IMG/VR virus record: IMGVR_UViG_2563366805_000009
Length of the DNA stretch: 40,060 nt
Strand: one strand, 5' to 3'
From: a virus
Taxonomy: Duplodnaviria; Heunggongvirae; Uroviricota; Caudoviricetes
Shown here: one piece after another, positions 4,233 to 14,309 of the stretch
Layout of the letters: each line of letters begins with the position of its first letter
How positions within the stretch are numbered: the first letter of the stretch is position 1
Program-made: the position numbers and the translations under genes
The notes under the pieces: model-generated
Databases searched by the model: none
Seen by the model: the letters and a program-made list of their open reading frames with translations, nothing else
Told to the model about the DNA's origin: nothing

Positions 4233-5086
4233 GCACCATCCTGAAATGGGCGGGAAATAAAACCGCCGTAATGTCCGAACTGAAAAAACATCTTCCTGCT
4301 GGTCCGCGACTAGTTGAACCTTTCGCGGGTTCCTGTGCTGTGATGATGGAGACGGATTATCCCTGCTATCTGGTTGCGGATATTAATCCTGATTTAATCA
4401 ACCTCTATAAAAAGGTTGCCGCTGATTGTGAATCGTTTATATCTCGCGCCAAAGTTTTATTTGAGATCGCAAACAGGGAGGTGGCTTATTACAACATAAG
4501 GCAGGAGTTTAATTACTCAACTGAAATTACTGATTTCATGAAAGCGGTATATTTCCTGTATCTCAATCGTCACGGTTACCGTGGGTTATGTCGCTATAAC
4601 AAGAGCGGGCATTTCAACATTCCCTACGGTAATTATAAAAATCCGTATTTCCCTGAAAAAGAAATTCGCGCTTTTGCAGAAAAAGCCCAGCGAGCAACGT
4701 TTATCTGCGCCAGCTTTGATGAAACGCTGGCGATGTTGAAGGCGGGGGATGTGGTGTATTGCGATCCGCCTTATGACGGTACGTTTTCCGGCTATCACGC
4801 TGACGGCTTTACTGAAGATGACCAGTATCACCTGGCATCCGTTCTTGAACATCGGTCATCAGAAGGACATCCGGTCATTGTTTCTAACAGTGACACATCC
4901 CTGATCCGTTCGCTGTATCGCAATTTTACTCACCACTATATCAAGGTAAAACGCAGCATCGGCGTAGCAGCTGGTGAGAGTAAATCAGCAACAGAAATCA
5001 TTGCTGTTTCCGGGCCGCGCTGCTGGGTGGGATTTGATTATTCGCGTGGCGTGGATAGTTCTGCCGTGTACGGAGTACGTGCATGA
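4229..5086 (+). CDS. dam: DNA adenine methyltransferase (Dam-like, orphan)
   Basis: N-terminal LKWAGNK, FAGS (SAM-binding) and DPPY catalytic motifs. ATGA start/stop coupling with the upstream gene. No adjacent restriction gene. Confidence 0.9.
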
Positions 5087-7497
5087 GCCATGCCGATATG
5101 AGCAACTGCTGCGGCTTTAACGAGGCTGCCGCATCGTTCTCATGGAACAGCCCGAAAAAGGCCATTAACCCTTATCTGGACCCGGCGGAAGTTGCGCCGG
5201 TTTCTGCGCTTTCAAACCTGATCACTCTGTACGCTGCCGATAACGAGCAGGAACAACTGCGCCGCGAGGCACTGAGTGATCAGGTCTGGGAGCGTTATTT
5301 CTTTAATGAATCCCGTGATCCTGTCCAACGCGAAATAGAGCAGGATAAGCTCATTAGCCGGGCAAAGTTGGCGCATGAGCAGCAGCGTTTTAACCCGGAC
5401 ATGGTCATTCTGGCAGACGTCAGCGCCCAGCCCTCCCATATCAGCAAGCCGCTGATGCAACGTATTGAATACTTCAGCAGCTTGGGCAGGCCAAAGGCTT
5501 ATTCCCGCTATTTACGTGAGACGATTAAGCCATGTCTGGAACGACTGGAGCATGTACGCGACAGCCAGCTATCTGCATCTTTTCGTTTTATGGCAAGCCA
5601 TGTAGGGCTGGACGGCCTGCTGATTCTGCCTGAAATGAGTCAGGATCAGGTGAAACGCCTGTCTACCCTTGTCGCTGCGCATATGAGCATGTGCCTTGAT
5701 GCAGCTTGTGGTGATTTGTATGCCACCGATGACGTTAAGCCAGAAGAAATCCGCAAGACATGGGAAAAGGTGGCAGCGGAAACCCTGCGTCTGGATGTCA
5801 TCCCGCCTGCGTTTGAGCAACTCCGTCGGAAAAGAAACCGCCGTAAACCCGTGCCCTATGAACTCATTCCGGGTTCGCTGGCGCGTATGTTGTGCGCCGA
5901 CTGGTGGTACCGGAAATTATGGAAAATGCGTTGCGAATGGCGGGAAGAGCAGTTGCGTGCTGTCTGCCTGGTCAGCAAAAAAGCATCTCCCTATGTCAGC
6001 TATGAAGCCGTGATGCATAAACGTGAGCAGCGCCGCAAGTCACTGGAGTTTTTCCGTTCTCATGAACTGGTGAACGAAGAGGGCGACACGCTGGATATGG
6101 AAGACGTGGTAAACGCCAGCAGCAGCAACCCGGCGCACCGCCGCAATGAGATGATGGCCTGTGTTAAAGGTCTGGAGCTTATCGCGGAAATGCGCGGTGA
6201 CTGCGCCGTTTTCTACACCATTACCTGTCCGTCACGTTTCCATTCCACGCTCAATAACGGCAGACCAAACCCAACCTGGACAAATGCGACGGTAAGACAA
6301 AGCAGCGATTATCTGGTCGGCATGTTTGCTGCATTTCGTAAGGCGATGCACAAAGCCGGGTTGCGCTGGTATGGCGTGCGGGTGGCTGAGCCGCATCATG
6401 ACGGTACAGTTCACTGGCACCTGTTGTGTTTCATGCGCAAAAAAGACCGCCGCGCCATTACTGCATTGTTGCGTAAGTTTGCCATCCGTGAAGACCGCGA
6501 GGAACTGGGTAATAACACTGGTCCACGCTTTAAATCTGAGCTGATAAACCCGCGCAAAGGAACGCCGACAAGCTACATCGCGAAATACATCAGTAAGAAC
6601 ATTGACGGGCGTGGTCTGGCTGGCGAGATCAGCAAGGAAACGGGTAAATCCCTGCGTGATAACGCTGAATACGTTAATGCCTGGGCGTCTCTGCATCGTG
6701 TTCAGCAATTCCGCTTCTTTGGTATTCCGGGACGTCAGGCTTACCGTGAACTTCGCTTGCTGGCTGGTCAGGCGGCAAGGCAACAGGGTGACAAAAAAGC
6801 AGGTGCGCCGGTACTGGATAACCCGCGTCTTGATGCCATTCTGGCTGCTGCTGATGCTGGTTGTTTTGCCACCTACATCATGAAGCAGGGCGGCGTACTG
6901 GTTCCCCGCAAATATCACCTCATCAGAACCGCTTATGAAATCAACGAAGAGCCAACCGCCTATGGCGATCACGGTATTCGTATTTATGGCATCTGGTCAC
7001 CCATTGCAGAGGGCAAGATCTGCACTCATGCAGTGAAGTGGAAAATGGTTCGTAAGGCCGTTGACGTTCAGGAGGCGGCAGCCGACCAGGGCGCTTGCGC
7101 CCCTTGGACTCGTGGCAATAACTGTCCCCTTGCTGAAAATTTGAACCAACATGAGAAAGATGAATCAGCAGATGGGGATACCAGAACGGACATTACCTGC
7201 ATGGATGACAAGGAATTGCACGATTACCTGCACAGTATGAGCAAAAAAGAGCGCCGGGAACTGGCAGCAAGATTGCGCCTGGTTAAACCGAAACGGCGTA
7301 AAGACTACAAACAGCGAATTACAGAGTATCAGCGTCAGCAGCTCGTCTATGAACTGAAGTCCAGAGGATTTGATGGCAGCGAGAAAGAGGTCGATTTGCT
7401 CCTTTGCGGTGGCAGTATTCCGTCAGGAGCAGGCCTGCGTATCTTCTATCGGAACCAGCGTTTGCAGGAAGATGATAAGTGGCGGAACATGTATTAA
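5083..7497 (+). CDS. A: Replication initiation endonuclease gpA
   Basis: 804 aa with the HUH-type motif [13 protein letters not shown] and the catalytic Tyr motif [10 protein letters not shown], typical of P2/186 A proteins. Confidence 0.9.
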
Positions 7498-7589
7498 TCA
7501 CGCGGGTTAACAATTCGTGCTCTTAATAATACCAGGCATATCAGGCTGATGAACGTAAAAAAACGTTTTACATCAGTAAGATTATTATA

Positions 7590-7609
7590 TACTGTAAATA
7601 TAAACAGTG
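7590..7609. promoter_or_regulatory. LexA (SOS) box
   Basis: TACTGTAAATATAAACAGTG fits the consensus TACTG(TA)5CAGTA (CTGT-N8-ACAG). It lies 42 nt upstream of the AGGAGG-ATG at 7641-7651. Confidence 0.6.
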
Positions 7610-7749
7610 GTTATATGTACAGTATTGCGTATGGTGTTATAGGAGGAAAGATGCAGGACTATTTTTTGGAGTCTTTGAAGCTCCAGCGCATTGATTTTTT
7701 TCTTAAGCTTGTAGCGGCTAGTGAGTGTAGTGATGAAGAGAAGGGGCTA

Positions 7750-8902
7750 AATAGCTGCGCGGAATAGTAGATCACTGAAAGGGAACTCAGCCCGGATTGT
7801 GCGATCTGATCAATCGCCAAACCAACCAAAATCACCAACCGGACTGAGCGATGCCGATCATAGTACCAATACCCCGTGGCGAACGACGCCTGATGCAGAA
7901 AGCTATTCATAAAACGCGTGATAAAAATCATGCCCGCAGACTCACGGCCATGCTGATGCTTCATCGGGGTGAACGGGTCAGCGATGTTGCCAGAACTCTC
8001 TGTTGTGCCCGTTCATCCGTTGGTCGCTGGATTAACTGGTTTACGCACTCAGGTATTGAAGGCCTGAAATCCTTACCCGCAGGGCGCTCCCGACGCTGGC
8101 CTTTTGAACATATCTGCACCCTGTTACGTGAGCTGATAAAGCATTCTCCCGGCGATTTTGGTTATCAACGTTCACGCTGGAGCACCGAATTACTGGCAAT
8201 AAAAATCAATGAGATAACCGGTTGCCAGTTACATGCAGGAACCGTTCGCCGCTGGTTGCCATCTGCGGGGCTTGTATGGCGCAGGGCCGCGCCAACTCTG
8301 CGTATCCGTGACCCACATAAAGATGAAAAGATGGCGGTAATCCACAAAGCGCTGGATGAATGCAGCGCAGAGCATCCGGTATTTTATGAAGATGAAGTGG
8401 ATATCCACCTTAATCCTAAAATCGGTGCGGACTGGCAGTTGCGCGGACAGCAGAAACGGGTAGTGACGCCGGGGCAGAACGAAAAATACTATCTGGCCGG
8501 CGCACTGCACAGTGGCACGGGTAAAGTCAGCTACGTGGGCGGCAACAGCAAAAGTTCAGCGCTGTTTATCGCTCTGCTGAAGCACCTGAAAGCCACTTAC
8601 CGGCGGGCGAAAACAATCACGCTGATCGTTGATAACTACATTATCCATAAAAGCCGCGAAACACAGCGCTGGTTGAAAGCAAATCCCAAGTTCAGGGTAA
8701 TTTACCAGCCGGTTTACTCGCCGTGGGTGAATCATGTGGAACGGCTATGGCAGGCACTTCATGACACGATAACCCGTAATCATCAGTGCCGCTCAATGTG
8801 GCAGTTACTGAAAAAGGTCCGCCATTTTATGGAAACCGCCAGCCCATTCCCCGGAGGAAAACATGGTCAGGCAAAAGTGTAGCGGTATTAGGCGCAGCTA
8901 TT
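7750..8902 (+). mobile_element. IS630 (1153 bp, intact)
   Basis: Terminal inverted repeats: AATAGCTGCGCGGAATA at the left end, and the reverse complement AATAGCTGCGCCTAATA at the right end. TA duplication (7748-49 and 8903-04) within a CTAG target. The length equals the 1153 bp I recall for IS630. Confidence 0.9.
7851..8882 (+). CDS. IS630-family (Tc1/mariner-like) DDE transposase, 343 aa
   Basis: Full-length ORF between the IRs. N-terminal HTH regions and a DDE-type C-terminal domain (YEDEVDIHLNP ... LIVDNYIIHKS ... PWVNHVERLW). Confidence 0.95.
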   Translation: MPIIVPIPRGERRLMQKAIHKTRDKNHARRLTAMLMLHRGERVSDVARTLCCARSSVGRWINWFTHSGIEGLKSLPAGRSRRWPFEHICTLLRELIKHSPGDFGYQRSRWSTELLAIKINEITGCQLHAGTVRRWLPSAGLVWRRAAPTLRIRDPHKDEKMAVIHKALDECSAEHPVFYEDEVDIHLNPKIGADWQLRGQQKRVVTPGQNEKYYLAGALHSGTGKVSYVGGNSKSSALFIALLKHLKATYRRAKTITLIVDNYIIHKSRETQRWLKANPKFRVIYQPVYSPWVNHVERLWQALHDTITRNHQCRSMWQLLKKVRHFMETASPFPGGKHGQAKV

Positions 8903-9027
8903 TAGCTCTGCAGTGGGTTTCTGAATTGACTGATGAGTTGATGGCGAAAATTCGAAGCCATGAATACAGTAGGTCGATGGATGTAATCAGTTGAGCTTGT
9001 TTCGTTAGGACTTGATAAGGGAACCGA

Positions 9028-9048
9028 AAAGGGGCATTAAGCCCCTTT
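9028..9048. terminator. Hairpin between convergent genes (AAAGGGGC-attaa-GCCCCTTT)
   Basis: 8-bp GC-rich stem. It lies downstream of both the restored small ORF (+) and the 99-aa lipoprotein gene (-). Confidence 0.5.
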
Positions 9049-9061
9049 CTCATAAGTTGAT

Positions 9062-9361
9062 TTAGTTGTTCCCCAAAGAGCCGGCCATGGCTGCATATTT
9101 AATTTCTTCGCTGGGTATTTCAGGATGTAGTTGAATTTGCCTGATGATATAGCCAGGAACTTCGTCACTCCACAGTTTCGCCGCGTCCTTACAGACCTTA
9201 TACGCGAAGTCTCTATTCTCAAAGGCATAGGATTTTCCGTATGCATATTGCTGACAGGCATGAACATAAGCTCCGAAGTCGCCGTCTTTATCTGGCAAAG
9301 CACATCCAGCTAAGGCTATGATGATTGCTACTAACGTAAAGGAGAAAGTTATACGTTTCAT
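9062..9361 (-). CDS. Lipoprotein, unknown function (99 aa)
   Basis: Signal peptide with lipobox LAGC (MKRITFSFTLVAIIIALAGC). Confidence 0.7.
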   Translation of the reverse strand: MKRITFSFTLVAIIIALAGCALPDKDGDFGAYVHACQQYAYGKSYAFENRDFAYKVCKDAAKLWSDEVPGYIIRQIQLHPEIPSEEIKYAAMAGSLGNN

Positions 9362-9469
9362 GGTCTCTTTCTAAGCGTTTAGCATTATTTAACTAAGGGG
9401 TATCTGCCGTGATTTGGTAGTCCCTGATATATATTCTCAGGGACTATGCTGAAGTAGCTTTAATTTTGA

Positions 9470-10276
9470 TTATTTAGAAAGGTACTTATCTCTAAGTTGA
9501 TTCAGTCTGTCAGCATCGCGTTCTGAAAACTCGGCGTCACCATAGATCGATTTCCCATCTGCGTCTTCAAGGCCAATGACTGTGACGGTAAATATAGCAT
9601 CAGCCGGAACTTTAAGTTTTCCCCAATCAGAGTATCTATTAGGGGCTAATTTCCAGTTGGCTTTCTCACCTGGTTCCAGACCTCCAGAAATTTTATAGTT
9701 GAAGACGTCAGAGAACCAAGGGACGCTTCTTCCTGGGCTGGCAATAACTCCTTTGAAGAATACTCTGGCAACCGCTTTGTCTGTTCCGTTTTCAACGCTA
9801 ATATCCAGAATTGGCTGATCATTGCCGTAATCCTCTTTCTGGAAATAAAAACGGGAACGTTCGACCTTGAAGGCTTTCATTTTTTCCGCAGCCTGTGTTG
9901 CAGAGGTTTGTTTGGCTTCCAGTTCTTTTATTTCTTGCAGAGCCTGTTCTTTCTCTCTCTTCTCACGCTCAAGGCGAATAGTTTGTGCGTAATTTATAAC
10001 CTCATCACCAGTTTTACCTTCCAACGCTGACTTAATTTTTGTTTCGTAGACGTCCCCAGAAGACGTTCCAGCCTGCATTAGCTCTCTCATGTTGATTTGG
10101 CTAAAGGCAACGACTTTAACTGCATCATCAAACTGAGCTTTTTTATCTGCAGGTAAGGACTCTCTTACTTTTTGAATGGACTCTTTCATCGACTGATCGC
10201 TTGATGCATCGATCTTCGGTTTGTCACAAGCAGTAAGCAGCAGAGCAAAAGCAATTACGCCAGTTAATTTCTTCAT
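9470..10276 (-). CDS. Lipoprotein, unknown function (268 aa)
   Basis: The internal Met at 10276 gives MKKLTGVIAFALLLTAC (lipobox LTAC). Central coiled-coil-like EKREKEQALQEIKELEAK segment. The 24-codon upstream extension in the ORF track lacks support. Confidence 0.75.
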   Translation of the reverse strand: MKKLTGVIAFALLLTACDKPKIDASSDQSMKESIQKVRESLPADKKAQFDDAVKVVAFSQINMRELMQAGTSSGDVYETKIKSALEGKTGDEVINYAQTIRLEREKREKEQALQEIKELEAKQTSATQAAEKMKAFKVERSRFYFQKEDYGNDQPILDISVENGTDKAVARVFFKGVIASPGRSVPWFSDVFNYKISGGLEPGEKANWKLAPNRYSDWGKLKVPADAIFTVTVIGLEDADGKSIYGDAEFSERDADRLNQLRDKYLSK

Positions 10277-10437
10277 ATCCCTATCCCAATCGTAAAAAAA
10301 CAAGGCTAATCCTAACAGGATTAGCGGGCATGACAAACTCATAGCCATATAGGTGTGCTGTATAAATTAGCGGGATGAGAAAGCCTGCACAGACCCTCAT
10401 GTTGAAACTTGATTTTAGCTCAAAAGAGCTGACACTA

Positions 10438-10618
10438 AATAACTGCGCGGAATAATGTTCCACTTTCGGTTAGCCCTTGGCCCTTGGCTCTTGCTGGGTA
10501 AGGCGTGGGGCCGTTTTCTTCGCCTGATCCTGCTGTATCTGGCCTACAGTATGTTGTCCTTACGCGACATGCCACATGTCAGTAAACGGCAGGTGTAGCA
10601 GTATTAGACGCAGCTATT
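10438..10618. mobile_element. IS630-derived MITE (181 bp, non-autonomous)
   Basis: The ends AATAACTGCGCGGAATAAT and GTATTAGACGCAGCTATT each match the IS630 termini at 7750/8902 with one mismatch in the compared stretch. TA duplication in a CTAG target (10435-37 and 10619-21). No ORF inside. Confidence 0.75.
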
Positions 10619-10805
10619 TAGTGTGTATTAAGCTGGCTCATATTTATGACTGGTTTCAAGGTTTGACCGATTTTCATGTCATGCATGTCTATGCTGCATG
10701 AGTTCGCATGATCGTTTGAGGATCGGTTTGGCTAAGACATGCCAGAACTGGCGGGCTTTTGCTCATGTCATGCAGGTGCATGAAAACTACTACATAAAGC
10801 GGGCA

Positions 10806-10824
10806 GGCGTGGCGGGGATACGAG
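10806..10824. other. Probable cos cohesive-end sequence
   Basis: GGCGTGGCGGGGATACGAG shares its first 13 nt with the 19-nt cohesive end I recall for phage 186 (GGCGTGGCGGGGAAAGCAT; P2 is GGCGAGGCGGGGAAAGCAC). It lies in a non-coding stretch between gene A and gene Q, as expected. Confidence 0.6.
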
Positions 10825-10983
10825 CGCGCGCTCGCTTAGTTTTGTAACACTCTGAGTAAGGTCGCTTTTTAGAAGCAAATGGCTTGCAAATTTTTTCAAC
10901 ATTGAGGTAATTTGTTAGGTATCGAAGGATAAATTAAGACAAGAGCAAATTCTTATTGCTTTTTGGATGACTAGGTGCAAGTT

Positions 10984-12090
10984 ATGACAGGTAGTGTCCC
11001 AGTAGTGCTTTCTGAGTCTGAGTTAAAGTCGATCTTGACCTTAACTGAACGTTTCACATGGAACGTTGCAAGGCCAATTATTGCGTCTTTAGGGCTGCCA
11101 ACAGGTAGGGGGCGTGAAGCAACAAACGAAAAAATACTAGAAAGCCTCATTGATCTTAAAAGTAAAGATAGGCAAAAGTTTGATGGCATTATGGCAAACG
11201 TAAATGACCTAATTTTGGGTCAGGTCGTTTATGGTGAAAAAGCAATATTTAGTTTGACTGTAGATAATAGTGTAATTAAAACACTAAATGACAGATTTAG
11301 TTTCCAATGGAATTTGATGAATCAACCATCATTATTGGTTGATTCGATCCTTGATGATGTCCAATTGCAAAATGCTGTAAAAAATCAACCTGAACTTGTT
11401 AATTATTCTATTCAAAACACCCAGTCAATACTTGTTTTTTCATCTGTCAGAGAATTAGTTGTAAGAGAAAAAATTCCCCCGTCAGCACTTGCGCAATACA
11501 AGCAGTTTGATGAAATTATTGCAAAGCGAAAAGAAAAGCGACAATGTTTTGATGTCTGTATATTAGACTCTGTTACTAATAAAATTCATGTTTTGGTAGA
11601 TACTAATGGTAATATTATTGGTGATAATGTTACTTTTGCAAAGAGTAACATTATTCGTGAATTGTATAATCATGTCGGTTATGAATTTAAATCATCGGAA
11701 AAAGATTTTTATCCGTTAATTGAGCCAATTTTCAAACAAAATTCATTGCCTTATTCAAAATTAAGCTATAAAGTCTTTGATTTGTCATTTTTGACGAATG
11801 AGGGGACTACGCATAAAGAAAAGAAAAATGTGGCCACTAAAGACTTACGTGATGATTTGTTTAATAAGGAAGGCATCAAAGCAGTAGGCAGTATTGGTTT
11901 GTATCGTATTGGAATTAGAGTTGATAGAAATAATCCAAAACTGCAATTAGCGGATAACGTAGAGCTTATCATTCCGGGAACACTCCGCAGGCATCTAGGA
12001 GGGAGTAGTTGCTCTCCTGTTAACTATGCTATATTAAGTAAATGTATATCCAAAGATGATTTCGAAACCCTCACAAAGCTGATATTATAA
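10984..12090 (+). CDS. Unknown protein, gene 1 of the three-gene cassette (368 aa)
   Basis: Long AT-rich ORF. ATG 10984 is preceded by TAGGTG; GTG 10975 is an alternative start. No Walker A or other motif I recognise. A possible helix-extended-helix-like N-terminal segment (LGLPTGRGREATNEKILESLIDL). Confidence 0.8.
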   Translation: MTGSVPVVLSESELKSILTLTERFTWNVARPIIASLGLPTGRGREATNEKILESLIDLKSKDRQKFDGIMANVNDLILGQVVYGEKAIFSLTVDNSVIKTLNDRFSFQWNLMNQPSLLVDSILDDVQLQNAVKNQPELVNYSIQNTQSILVFSSVRELVVREKIPPSALAQYKQFDEIIAKRKEKRQCFDVCILDSVTNKIHVLVDTNGNIIGDNVTFAKSNIIRELYNHVGYEFKSSEKDFYPLIEPIFKQNSLPYSKLSYKVFDLSFLTNEGTTHKEKKNVATKDLRDDLFNKEGIKAVGSIGLYRIGIRVDRNNPKLQLADNVELIIPGTLRRHLGGSSCSPVNYAILSKCISKDDFETLTKLIL

Positions 12091-12102
12091 TTGGAGTCAG
12101 CA

Positions 12103-12537
12103 ATGAAGGATGGTGATATGCCCAAGATCATCAAAGAAATGTGTGCAGAACGCCCTGAAATTGGGGCGTTAGCTTGCTATTTGTACGATGAAATCGAGGC
12201 AAGGGCTAAAAAATCATCAAATATAGCTTTAAGTTATAAGGATTTATTTAATATAGCTGGTGGTTATAATAAGGTTTTACAGCCAGAAACGTATGAGCAG
12301 GTTATCTATCCGGCCATACAAATTCTTTGTAGCCCAAAGGTTGATTTTTTAAAACTCAATTATTGGTTCATTGATGATTTTCATGACCCTGTAGAACTTG
12401 AAATAGAGGAAGTTATTGAGGCGGAAATCAGTCAATCTTTAGCAAACCCATTTACAGGGGAGCTTATGTATGACTATAAGTCATTCGTATTTCCTTTTTT
12501 TACATTAGATGAATCTAAATCAAAGGATATTATCTGA
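12103..12537 (+). CDS. Unknown small acidic protein, gene 2 of the cassette (144 aa)
   Basis: GGAG at 12093 with ATG at 12103, 12 nt after the gene-1 stop. Asp/Glu-rich. No recognisable motif. Confidence 0.75.
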   Translation: MKDGDMPKIIKEMCAERPEIGALACYLYDEIEARAKKSSNIALSYKDLFNIAGGYNKVLQPETYEQVIYPAIQILCSPKVDFLKLNYWFIDDFHDPVELEIEEVIEAEISQSLANPFTGELMYDYKSFVFPFFTLDESKSKDII

Positions 12538-13202
12538 TGTTAAAAATGTCTGCAGCAATGAGTTTGGCTGATATTGATAATGATATTTTTCTTCAGCGTA
12601 TTAATGCTTCTATTACTCGTGTTAGATTTGCACTTCAATCGTACGATAATTTCAAACAATTTGTCAGGATTGAACTTGATTCTGCTGTAAAGGAAATAGA
12701 AGAGAATTCAAATAAGTTAAACTTCGATTTAACAGAAGATCAGCTTACTTTAATTTTATTGGCCAATATCAAAAATAAAGATATGGGCATTGAAGCATTT
12801 CATGAAAATAATCAGCGCGGACATTGTGATATTACAATAAAACTAAAGGATTATATTTGGCATGGCGAAGCCAAAAAACATACATCTTCATATAGTTATT
12901 TATTTAAAGGGTATGCTCAACTCACTGAACGATATAGTACAGGGACCGTAGACAGCGCAAGTGGTGGATTGATTATCTATACTCGTAATAGAAAATGTAA
13001 TGAAATGATGAGCAACTGGAAGGCGCATTTAGATAAATTCGCACCAAGAATTCATGCCTGTAAATCTATAACGATTACTCCTTGTCAAAAAAATCCATTG
13101 GTTTTTTATAGCCAGCATGTTCACACAGTTACTCAACTGAATTATGAAGTTATTCATTACCCTGTAAATCTATATCATGAGCCTGTAGATCCGGATCTTT
13201 AA
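12537..13202 (+). CDS. Putative PD-(D/E)xK-fold nuclease, gene 3 of the cassette (221 aa)
   Basis: Its start overlaps the gene-2 stop (TGATG). The sequence GIEAFHE..GHCDITIKLKDYIWHGEAKKH gives an E...D(98)-x12-E(111)-x-K(113) pattern typical of restriction-endonuclease-like folds. Confidence 0.75.
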   Translation: MLKMSAAMSLADIDNDIFLQRINASITRVRFALQSYDNFKQFVRIELDSAVKEIEENSNKLNFDLTEDQLTLILLANIKNKDMGIEAFHENNQRGHCDITIKLKDYIWHGEAKKHTSSYSYLFKGYAQLTERYSTGTVDSASGGLIIYTRNRKCNEMMSNWKAHLDKFAPRIHACKSITITPCQKNPLVFYSQHVHTVTQLNYEVIHYPVNLYHEPVDPDL

Positions 13203-13271: not shown

Positions 13272-14309
13272 TCATTCAATACCTAAATTATAATCTTCAA
13301 AACGCATGACTTCTTCTCCAAGCCAGTCGTTCAATTCCTGAAGGCGCTTCTGCAGAGGTATCAACTCGTTGCGAACAAAGACGCGGCTGGCTTTCTCCAC
13401 ATCCCCAAAACCCCCAACATTACTCGGCATAATCCCCATCATTTGCGGCGGCACACGATGTGCTGCCATCATGTCATCCCGACTCACGTTCTTGATATTC
13501 AAAAACTCATCCTTCGCTGCGACCTCTGACAACGGGATAATCTGAAGTCCGTCCTTTTTGCCGTTAGGCGAGTACATAAACAGATTGCGGAAGTTGCCAG
13601 GGCCTTTGGCGCTTTTCATTGCGTTGCGGAGGTTGTTCACATCTTCCTGGTTCTGCGCGGCATCGGTCATATACATGATGAAGCCTGCATGGCTACCGTT
13701 AATGTAATACTTGCGGCGGAACAGCGTGGCGGACTCGTTGAGCAGGGCTGACGGAATGGCAGAAAGATAACCGGGCAGGCCGTAGATCTCCTGGTTGATG
13801 TCCGGTTCCATCAGATGAAAAATGCTGCCTTTCGTGAACTGATACGGCAGGGTTGTCATACCGTATTGCACAAACCAGTAGGTATCCAGGTCTAATCCGC
13901 GTCGGGTGTATTTTGCAAGCGCAGGCTCAATAGCGATAACTTCACCGAATCGGTTCGTGCGTTTCTCCAGGTAGGCGTTACCAAATACCAGATAGTCCTG
14001 CACAAAACGCGAAAAAGCCTGCTGGCTGAGCAGCGGATGAGGGATATAGGTACTGGTCAGAATGTTGCACTTTACTGCAATCGGGGAACTGTGATGCACG
14101 GCGGCGCGGAAGGTGCGCGCCAGTCCGTCAAAGCTGACGGGCGGCTCATACCAACGGTCCATCTGTACGCATTCCACATAATCCAGCAGTTCTCGGCGGT
14201 CCAGAACAGGAACGGGATCGCCGAAGCTGAATGCTTCGGCTGTAGTTTGACTTTTAAGCTGGATCTGTTTCGTCGCCGCAGCGCGGTTCTTCTTACTCTT
14301 TCCCATCAA
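13272..14309 (-). CDS. Q: Portal protein gpQ
   Basis: 345 aa. Position and sequence are typical of P2 Q (PBSX-family portal), with the stop of P overlapping its start. Confidence 0.9.
   Translation of the reverse strand: MMGKSKKNRAAATKQIQLKSQTTAEAFSFGDPVPVLDRRELLDYVECVQMDRWYEPPVSFDGLARTFRAAVHHSSPIAVKCNILTSTYIPHPLLSQQAFSRFVQDYLVFGNAYLEKRTNRFGEVIAIEPALAKYTRRGLDLDTYWFVQYGMTTLPYQFTKGSIFHLMEPDINQEIYGLPGYLSAIPSALLNESATLFRRKYYINGSHAGFIMYMTDAAQNQEDVNNLRNAMKSAKGPGNFRNLFMYSPNGKKDGLQIIPLSEVAAKDEFLNIKNVSRDDMMAAHRVPPQMMGIMPSNVGGFGDVEKASRVFVRNELIPLQKRLQELNDWLGEEVMRFEDYNLGIE

Follow-up and report, generated by a model that had tools for sequence, protein, structure and literature searches.

An ISEc33 copy and an IS630-type MITE in the cargo region of a P2-like prophage are probably unrelated insertions

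The virus record IMGVR_UViG_2563366805_000009 in IMG/VR (40,060 nucleotides; hereafter the window) is a P2-like prophage whose variable cargo region contains an intact insertion sequence (IS) of the IS630 family, a 181-bp miniature inverted-repeat transposable element (MITE) with very similar ends and, between the two, a pair of lipoprotein genes. Very probably, the IS and the MITE are unrelated insertions of one transposon superfamily that lie near each other in this region. An earlier note on this DNA, made from the sequence alone, had described both elements and suggested that together they could act as a composite mobilisable unit, and that they may explain how cargo is shuffled at the locus. 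The description of the elements largely stands, but neither suggestion is borne out. An otherwise identical prophage has the exact site of the IS unoccupied. None of 5426 complete Escherichia coli genomes contains the complete unit, and 20 of them have the module and the MITE but no IS. Conserved backbone, at 8995 and 10682, forms the edges of the variable slot.

We envisage the following history. In an older event, a MITE of about 167 bp would have entered a CTAG site 160 bp upstream of the two-gene lipoprotein module. It would have been a non-autonomous derivative of an IS630/ISEc33-group element that kept only the transposase-binding ends, and it would then have been inherited with the module while two 7-bp tandem duplications lengthened it to 181 bp. 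More recently, an intact and currently active ISEc33 would have landed in a second CTAG site 1.5 kb away by the usual cut-and-paste route of IS630, duplicating TA and splitting a 62-amino acid phage open reading frame (ORF). The slot that holds the lipoprotein genes would be exchanged by recombination at its conserved backbone flanks, not by transposition. With one mismatch in 17 at each end, the ISEc33 transposase could plausibly bind the MITE and move it in trans.

Results

The intact element is an ISEc33 copy

The IS occupies 1153 bp on the plus strand (7750-8902) and has the ends AATAGCTGCGCGGAATA (left) and TATTAGGCGCAGCTATT (right). Its left terminal inverted repeat is AATAGCTGCGCGGAATAGTA (7750-7769), the first 17 nucleotides of which equal the 5′ end of IS630 (PMC11544213); the right repeat is CGGTATTAGGCGCAGCTATT (8883-8902), and the inverted arms are 90% complementary over 21 nucleotides. 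A single plus-strand gene of 343 codons, free of internal stops (7851-8882), encodes a transposase with a Pfam DDE_3 domain (E = 1.4e-24) and N-terminal helix-turn-helix matches (HTH_23, HTH_32, HTH_29, HTH_33). The element is flanked by a TA duplication (7748-7749 and 8903-8904), with C at 7747 and G at 8905, and relatives of the prophage have an empty C-TA-G site at this position. Elements of the IS630 family move by cut-and-paste and duplicate TA, and IS630 itself favours CTAG; Tenzen and Ohtsubo reportedly described its insertion at CTAG with TA duplication.

The earlier note called this element IS630. The family assignment is correct, as are the ends, the transposase and the TA in CTAG, but the element is of the ISEc33 type and we rejected its identity with IS630 itself. 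It shares its left end with IS630 proper (X05955) and differs from it by one base at the 3′ end, which is TATTAGG in the window and TATTAAG in IS630 (PMC11544213). All 1153 bp are 100% identical to many chromosomal and plasmid copies in E. coli, which RefSeq annotates as 'IS630-like element ISEc33 family transposase'. Like ISEc33, the window element is 1153 bp long, encodes a 343-amino acid transposase with HTH and DDE_3 domains, has terminal inverted repeats of about 20 bp, and sits in a CTAG target with a TA duplication; we saw no difference from the annotated copies. Matches at 99% identity or more come from 105 records, at up to 10 places per genome, while about 1380 further records match at only 80-90% identity and are presumed to be IS630-type relatives. 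To judge by these matches, the IS at 7750-8902 is evidently a common, active and already known element.

The IS arrived alone in a small phage gene

Removing the IS and one TA joins two plus-strand segments, one of 33 codons (7651-7749) and the other of 29 codons and a stop (8905-8994), into an ORF of 62 amino acids that matches phrog_698 over residues 1-62 (E = 1.2e-37). The restored product corresponds to WP_001580533.1, whose gene is uninterrupted both in the prophage of strain ECONIH4 and in a further near-identical prophage (L002). Thus, the IS interrupts this small gene.

The ECONIH4 prophage is 100% identical to positions 5000-13000 of the window apart from two differences: the IS is absent, and one of the lipoprotein genes contains an IS1. 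Its sequences matching the two flanks of the IS overlap by exactly TA to form an intact CTAG, an exact empty site that is also present in phages Fels-2 and 500465-1. When we searched positions 7600-10750 of the window against the 5426 complete E. coli genomes, no genome covered more than 63% of the query, and 20 covered exactly everything except the IS; in these, the same slot holds both lipoprotein genes and the MITE. Neither IMG/VR nor the JGI metagenomes contained the junction between the IS and its flank at this site. Together, the exact empty site in an identical prophage and the 20 IS-free copies of module and MITE indicate that the IS inserted alone, after the module and the MITE were in place. 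On this distribution, the insertion appears to be recent, and among the collections searched it is known only from the source of the window.

The 181-bp element is a MITE with ISEc33-type ends

The MITE (10438-10618, plus strand) is oriented as the IS is and has the ends AATAACTGCGCGGAATA (left) and TATTAGACGCAGCTATT (right). It too is flanked by a TA duplication (10436-10437 and 10619-10620), with C at 10435 and G at 10621, so that both elements sit in CTAG with a TA duplication, as the earlier note had said. Its report of near-identical termini is equally sound, with 16 of 17 positions matching ISEc33 on each side. An end motif allowing at most three mismatches occurs five times in the 40-kb window (0.11 in shuffled sequence), and four of the five occurrences are the ends of these two elements. 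The likeness to ISEc33 reaches beyond the 17 nucleotides: on the left, the consensus of the MITE family described below is identical to ISEc33 over 19 nucleotides, and on the right, an Erwinia copy is identical over 26 nucleotides, a stretch that takes in the place of the transposase stop codon (GTG-TAG). In contrast, the interior that remains after removal of 20 nucleotides on the left and 27 on the right (134 nucleotides) has no significant similarity to the interior of the IS, as had been noticed by eye; 47 of 300 shuffles scored as high.

The length of the window copy is accounted for by three tandem 7-mers on the plus strand (10473-10493; GCCCTTG GCCCTTG GCTCTTG, the last imperfect), which bring the MITE from a length of about 166 bp to 181 bp. 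Different strains have this one insertion, between identical flanks, as alleles of 166, 174 and 181 bp that differ by stepwise 7-bp tandem duplication. Since members of the family elsewhere are about 167 bp long, the short allele is ancestral and that of the window the most derived. The MITE contains no transposase gene, and its sole ORF, of 47 amino acids, was rejected as a coding sequence: the frame is broken in other copies, with a stop in one of them (L003).

We also observed a sigma-70-like sequence match, CTGACA-16-AATAAT, on the plus strand across the junction of left flank and MITE (10429-10456). Its −10 element needs a G-to-A change that is present only in the copies at this prophage site.

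CTAG is rare in the window: base composition predicts about 156 sites and 12 intact ones are present (about 13-fold under-represented), and fewer than 1% of TA dinucleotides fall within CTAG. With CTAG this scarce, two insertions at CTAG are not a matter of chance, and few targets in this prophage are open to elements of the IS630 group.

Related copies at unrelated loci identify a MITE family

Sequences related to the 181-bp element are found at 164 places in 154 of the 5426 E. coli genomes, with one or two per genome, and they fall into five loci. The P2-like prophage site accounts for about 20 genomes (at least 90% identity to the window copy). A locus beside an Rhs gene (88 records) has copies that are 83% identical, and a fimbrial island has one that is 73% identical, whereas matches in a lambdoid tail-fibre region (77% identity) and on a 98-kb plasmid (80%) are partial; across these other loci, identity to the window copy is thus 73-83%. 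Copies identical to that of the plasmid occur on five IMG/VR contigs, so the plasmid is probably a phage-plasmid. Three of the five E. coli loci therefore lie in phage or probable phage-plasmid DNA, which weakens the view that MITEs of this type are unusual in prophage cargo.

To look beyond E. coli, we searched a single genome of each species for both end cores spaced as in a MITE. This gave 11 loci in nine species of Enterobacterales from eight genera: three in Erwinia tracheiphila and the others in Sodalis, Dickeya oryzae, Trabulsiella, two species of Kluyvera, Intestinirhabdus, a Klebsiella plasmid and Brenneria. Copies at loci other than the prophage site are 166-168 bp long, and 13 distinct copies align from end to end with a mean column identity of 82%. 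Of 16 distinct sites, 12 have the arrangement CTA|..|TAG, and the rest have TA on at least one side. Homologous copies at unrelated loci, with the same ends and TA or CTAG flanks, make this a genuine MITE and not a one-off deletion remnant. The proposal that the 181-bp element is an IS630-type MITE is thereby confirmed.

The three copies in E. tracheiphila differ from each other by one or two bases and have different flanks. At one of these loci there is also part of a transposase gene, 75% identical to that of ISEc33. These findings are the strongest evidence in our analysis that the family has been mobile recently. This partial IS630-family element (positions 1-456 of locus L021), 6.8 kb from one of the near-identical MITE copies, has an ISEc33-like right end, and its transposase is apparently frameshifted near the C-terminus. 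Its subterminal sequence resembles that of ISEc33, not that of the MITE. No parent IS with a MITE-like interior was found among the loci retrieved, the interior of ISEc33 itself being unlike that of the MITE. A search for an empty site for the plasmid copy found none.

The window MITE resembles other IS630-derived MITEs in being short and non-coding, with terminal inverted repeats that match an IS of the IS630 family and a TA duplication. Its imperfect inverted arms of about 30 nucleotides could form a long hairpin, and, by analogy, it has presumably been moved in trans. MITEs are mobilised in trans by the transposase of a matching IS, and RUP of Streptococcus pneumoniae and Nezha of cyanobacteria are further IS630-derived MITEs. 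A strong preference for CTAG sets the family apart among such elements.

Identity with ERIC (MITEEc1; RU-1), YPAL (RU-2) or RU-3 was considered and rejected, as the window MITE is unrelated to them in sequence. Local alignment scores against ERIC and YPAL (sequences from PMC2759123) fell within the range of shuffles; RU-3 (PMC2759123) gave a marginal score, reached by 4 of 300 shuffles, with the window copy only and not with the family consensus. ERIC (MITEEc1) and MITEPlu5 have been linked to 'CCC-type' IS630 elements (PMC6267812), whereas the ends of this MITE are of the AATAGCTGCGC (AATAG/AATAA) type. ERIC-like families also reach tens to hundreds of copies, in contrast to the one or two per genome of the family described here. 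Searches of the literature by end sequence and by name (ISfinder was not covered) returned no earlier description of this family, which may be new, or at least unnamed, within a known kind of element.

Cargo exchange maps to the backbone

In the window, an integrase gene (1-1209) and the gene for the gpA replication endonuclease (5083-7497) precede the cargo, and a portal gene (13272-14309) followed by terminase and capsid genes comes after it. RefSeq annotation of identical DNA agrees with these assignments. The IS, the lipoprotein genes and the MITE all lie in the variable region between the gpA and portal genes, and the prophage cargo setting given in the earlier note is correct. The tin/old region of P2 (Peduoviridae) has the same position between gene A and the portal gene, and related phages fill the slot with other genes.

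Fels-2 and phage 500465-1 match the window over 7400-7748 and 8905-8995; the homology then ceases, and it returns at 10682-10831. The slot in between (8996-10681) contains a dinI/tumB-like (dinI/tum-like) gene in those phages; in the window it is filled by the two lipoprotein genes, the MITE and another 62 bp. The edges of the slot are therefore conserved backbone at 8995 and 10682 and not transposon ends. Beyond 10831, cargo differs again among prophages that are otherwise near-identical. Cargo exchange thus maps to the conserved anchors of the backbone; the MITE itself is embedded in DNA that is specific to the slot. The suggestion that the two elements account for the shuffling of cargo is thus not supported.

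Discussion

Alternative explanations

One alternative is a composite transposon in which the IS (as left end) and the MITE (as right end) would, together with the two lipoprotein genes, ferry cargo to or from this prophage hotspot. The geometry suits it: the two elements have the same orientation, their outer ends at 7750 and 10618 form a proper, near-identical inverted pair, and an intact transposase is encoded in cis. One degenerate composite of the IS630 family, Tn630-NC1, has been reported, although none had been described before 2024 (PMC11544213). As in Tn5/Tn10-type composites and Tn630-NC1, two elements with matching ends and compatible orientation bracket passenger genes; the window arrangement differs in that a MITE takes the place of one IS, the insertions happened separately, and the bracketed unit is seen nowhere else. 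None of the E. coli genomes holds the whole unit, and the junction between the IS and its site, which any copy at this locus should have, is missing from IMG/VR and the metagenomes. A separate TA duplication flanks the IS, and an otherwise identical prophage has exactly this site unoccupied, which means that the IS came alone, with the module and the MITE already present. The empty site that was observed lacks the IS alone; 20 genomes have the passengers and the MITE without it. Finally, in comparisons the left boundary of the module is backbone at 8995 and not a transposon end, and our end-motif scan of the window found no third IS630-type end there. We consider a composite transposon very improbable, and joint movement of the 2.87-kb block possible only in principle. 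The outcome that the earlier note had named as telling against its own reading, namely that the MITE-like ends are what is left of a deleted second IS630 without other genomic copies, is less credible still, and we give it almost no weight. The ends of the MITE do match ISEc33, and the right end retains the position of the transposase stop codon. However, the 134-nucleotide interior lacks significant similarity to ISEc33, the same interior recurs at unrelated loci in E. coli and eight other genera, in elements about 167 bp long, and the family copies align over their whole length at 82% mean column identity.

The MITE might instead have been co-opted as a promoter, a terminator or a structured RNA for the divergent lipoprotein or cargo operons, which would explain why it is never absent. 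Module and MITE are linked in 20 of 20 genomes with no empty site found, and the sigma-70-like match spans the junction with a −10 element created by a site-specific substitution. Nevertheless, promoter-like matches are no more numerous than in shuffles (2 vs. 3.5 expected), and common descent of some 20 nearly identical prophages accounts for the linkage. A known or structured RNA was rejected: Rfam gave no match at E ≤ 1, the consensus fold has almost no covariation (−0.44 kcal/mol; its helices are mainly the extended inverted arms), and the window copy does not fold more stably than shuffled sequence (z = −0.13). Tandem insertions of 7 and 14 bp that break an internal hairpin are also tolerated. 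Co-option thus seems quite unlikely to us. A more far-reaching proposal, which we rate as unlikely when taken in full, is that the element of about 167 bp represents an undescribed, low-copy, CTAG-targeting MITE family that depends on IS630/ISEc33, resides mainly on phages, plasmids and genomic islands throughout Enterobacterales, and is still active in E. tracheiphila, and that the ISEc33 1.5 kb away in the window could, as a source of matching transposase, reactivate the MITE or, rarely, move the lipoprotein genes in a hybrid IS-MITE composite.

Two unrelated insertions remain our preferred explanation, and several points weigh against it. The source strain is represented by 40 kb only, so copy counts of both elements come from other genomes, and the relative ages of the two insertions are taken from their distribution in the population and not from a phylogeny with dates. 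An unoccupied MITE site at this locus was sought with a synthetic 300-nucleotide query against the E. coli genomes and by exact junction scans of IMG/VR and the JGI metagenomes, and none was found. The E. coli matches to this query were all occupied sites, aligned in two pieces, and in these genomes the MITE always accompanied the DNA on its left. A candidate empty site at the Rhs locus was also rejected, because the similar Rhs core, AACTGGCAG, contains no CTAG. We therefore infer the MITE insertion from its TA/CTAG flanks and from the family copies elsewhere, and not from polymorphism. The MITE is an old resident of this type of cargo.

Overall, the finding matters little, as a common and known IS has split a small phage ORF of unknown function. 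The negative result is nonetheless useful: genes are exchanged here at the backbone anchors (8995, 10682 and 10831) and not at transposon ends, and the IS630-type elements are passengers of the hotspot, not its engine. The MITE family, a marker of phage, plasmid and island DNA in several genera of enterobacteria, may merit a name and an ISfinder entry, and it offers a clean case of CTAG-specific targeting.

The lipoprotein genes and neighbouring cargo

The DNA between the two elements (1533 bp) contains two minus-strand genes, in agreement with the earlier note, and their lipoprotein signal peptides, read from the translations, are MKRITFSFTLVAIIIALAG|C and MKKLTGVIAFALLLTA|C. One gene (9062-9361) encodes a predicted lipoprotein of 99 amino acids with the lipobox LAG|C, which matches phrog_7666 over its full length and has no match in Pfam or PADLOC. 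The other (9470-10276) encodes a lipoprotein of 268 amino acids with the lipobox LTA|C, a Pfam DUF6694 domain (E = 3.5e-22) and a full-length match to phrog_7468; RefSeq labels it 'DUF6694 family lipoprotein'. Both PHROG families are of unknown function. These genes are ordinary prophage cargo in a variable slot.

In ECONIH4, it is the DUF6694 gene that is split by IS1 (4257-5839 of locus L001, equivalent to 9470-10276 of the window). Sister prophages have thus been hit in the same 3-kb stretch by different IS elements, independently of each other. A perfect 9-bp stem, GCTAATCCT-GTT-AGGATTAGC (10305-10325), followed by a run of T on the minus strand, lies a short way upstream of the start codon of the DUF6694 gene and within a longer alternative ORF (9470-10348).

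The backbone anchor that closes the lipoprotein/MITE slot (10682-10831) shares 89-91% identity with Fels-2 and phage 500465-1, and the part of our query that matches it is present in about 1240 of the 5426 E. coli genomes. These 150 bp stand between two cargo slots that vary independently of each other, 8996-10681 and 10832 to about 13270. A terminator-like GC hairpin (10821-10834) lies at the end of the anchor, and a direct repeat, TCATGTCATGCA, occurs at 10674 and 10763, its first copy straddling the left edge. The anchor may be a recombination anchor or a terminator of the hotspot.

The second slot contains three co-oriented ORFs of 371, 148 and 221 amino acids (10975-13202), the first of which matches phrog_12777, of unknown function. 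None of the three has a match in PADLOC, and Pfam gave a single sub-threshold match, to Rep3_C. The lipoprotein genes and these ORFs differ from the tin/old region of P2 in having no PADLOC defence-model match, and we rejected assignment of the cargo genes to a defence system on that ground; the three ORFs could still be an uncharacterised defence or exclusion module. In the near-identical prophage L002, the second slot is filled by other genes, including one for a protein with a STAS-like domain.

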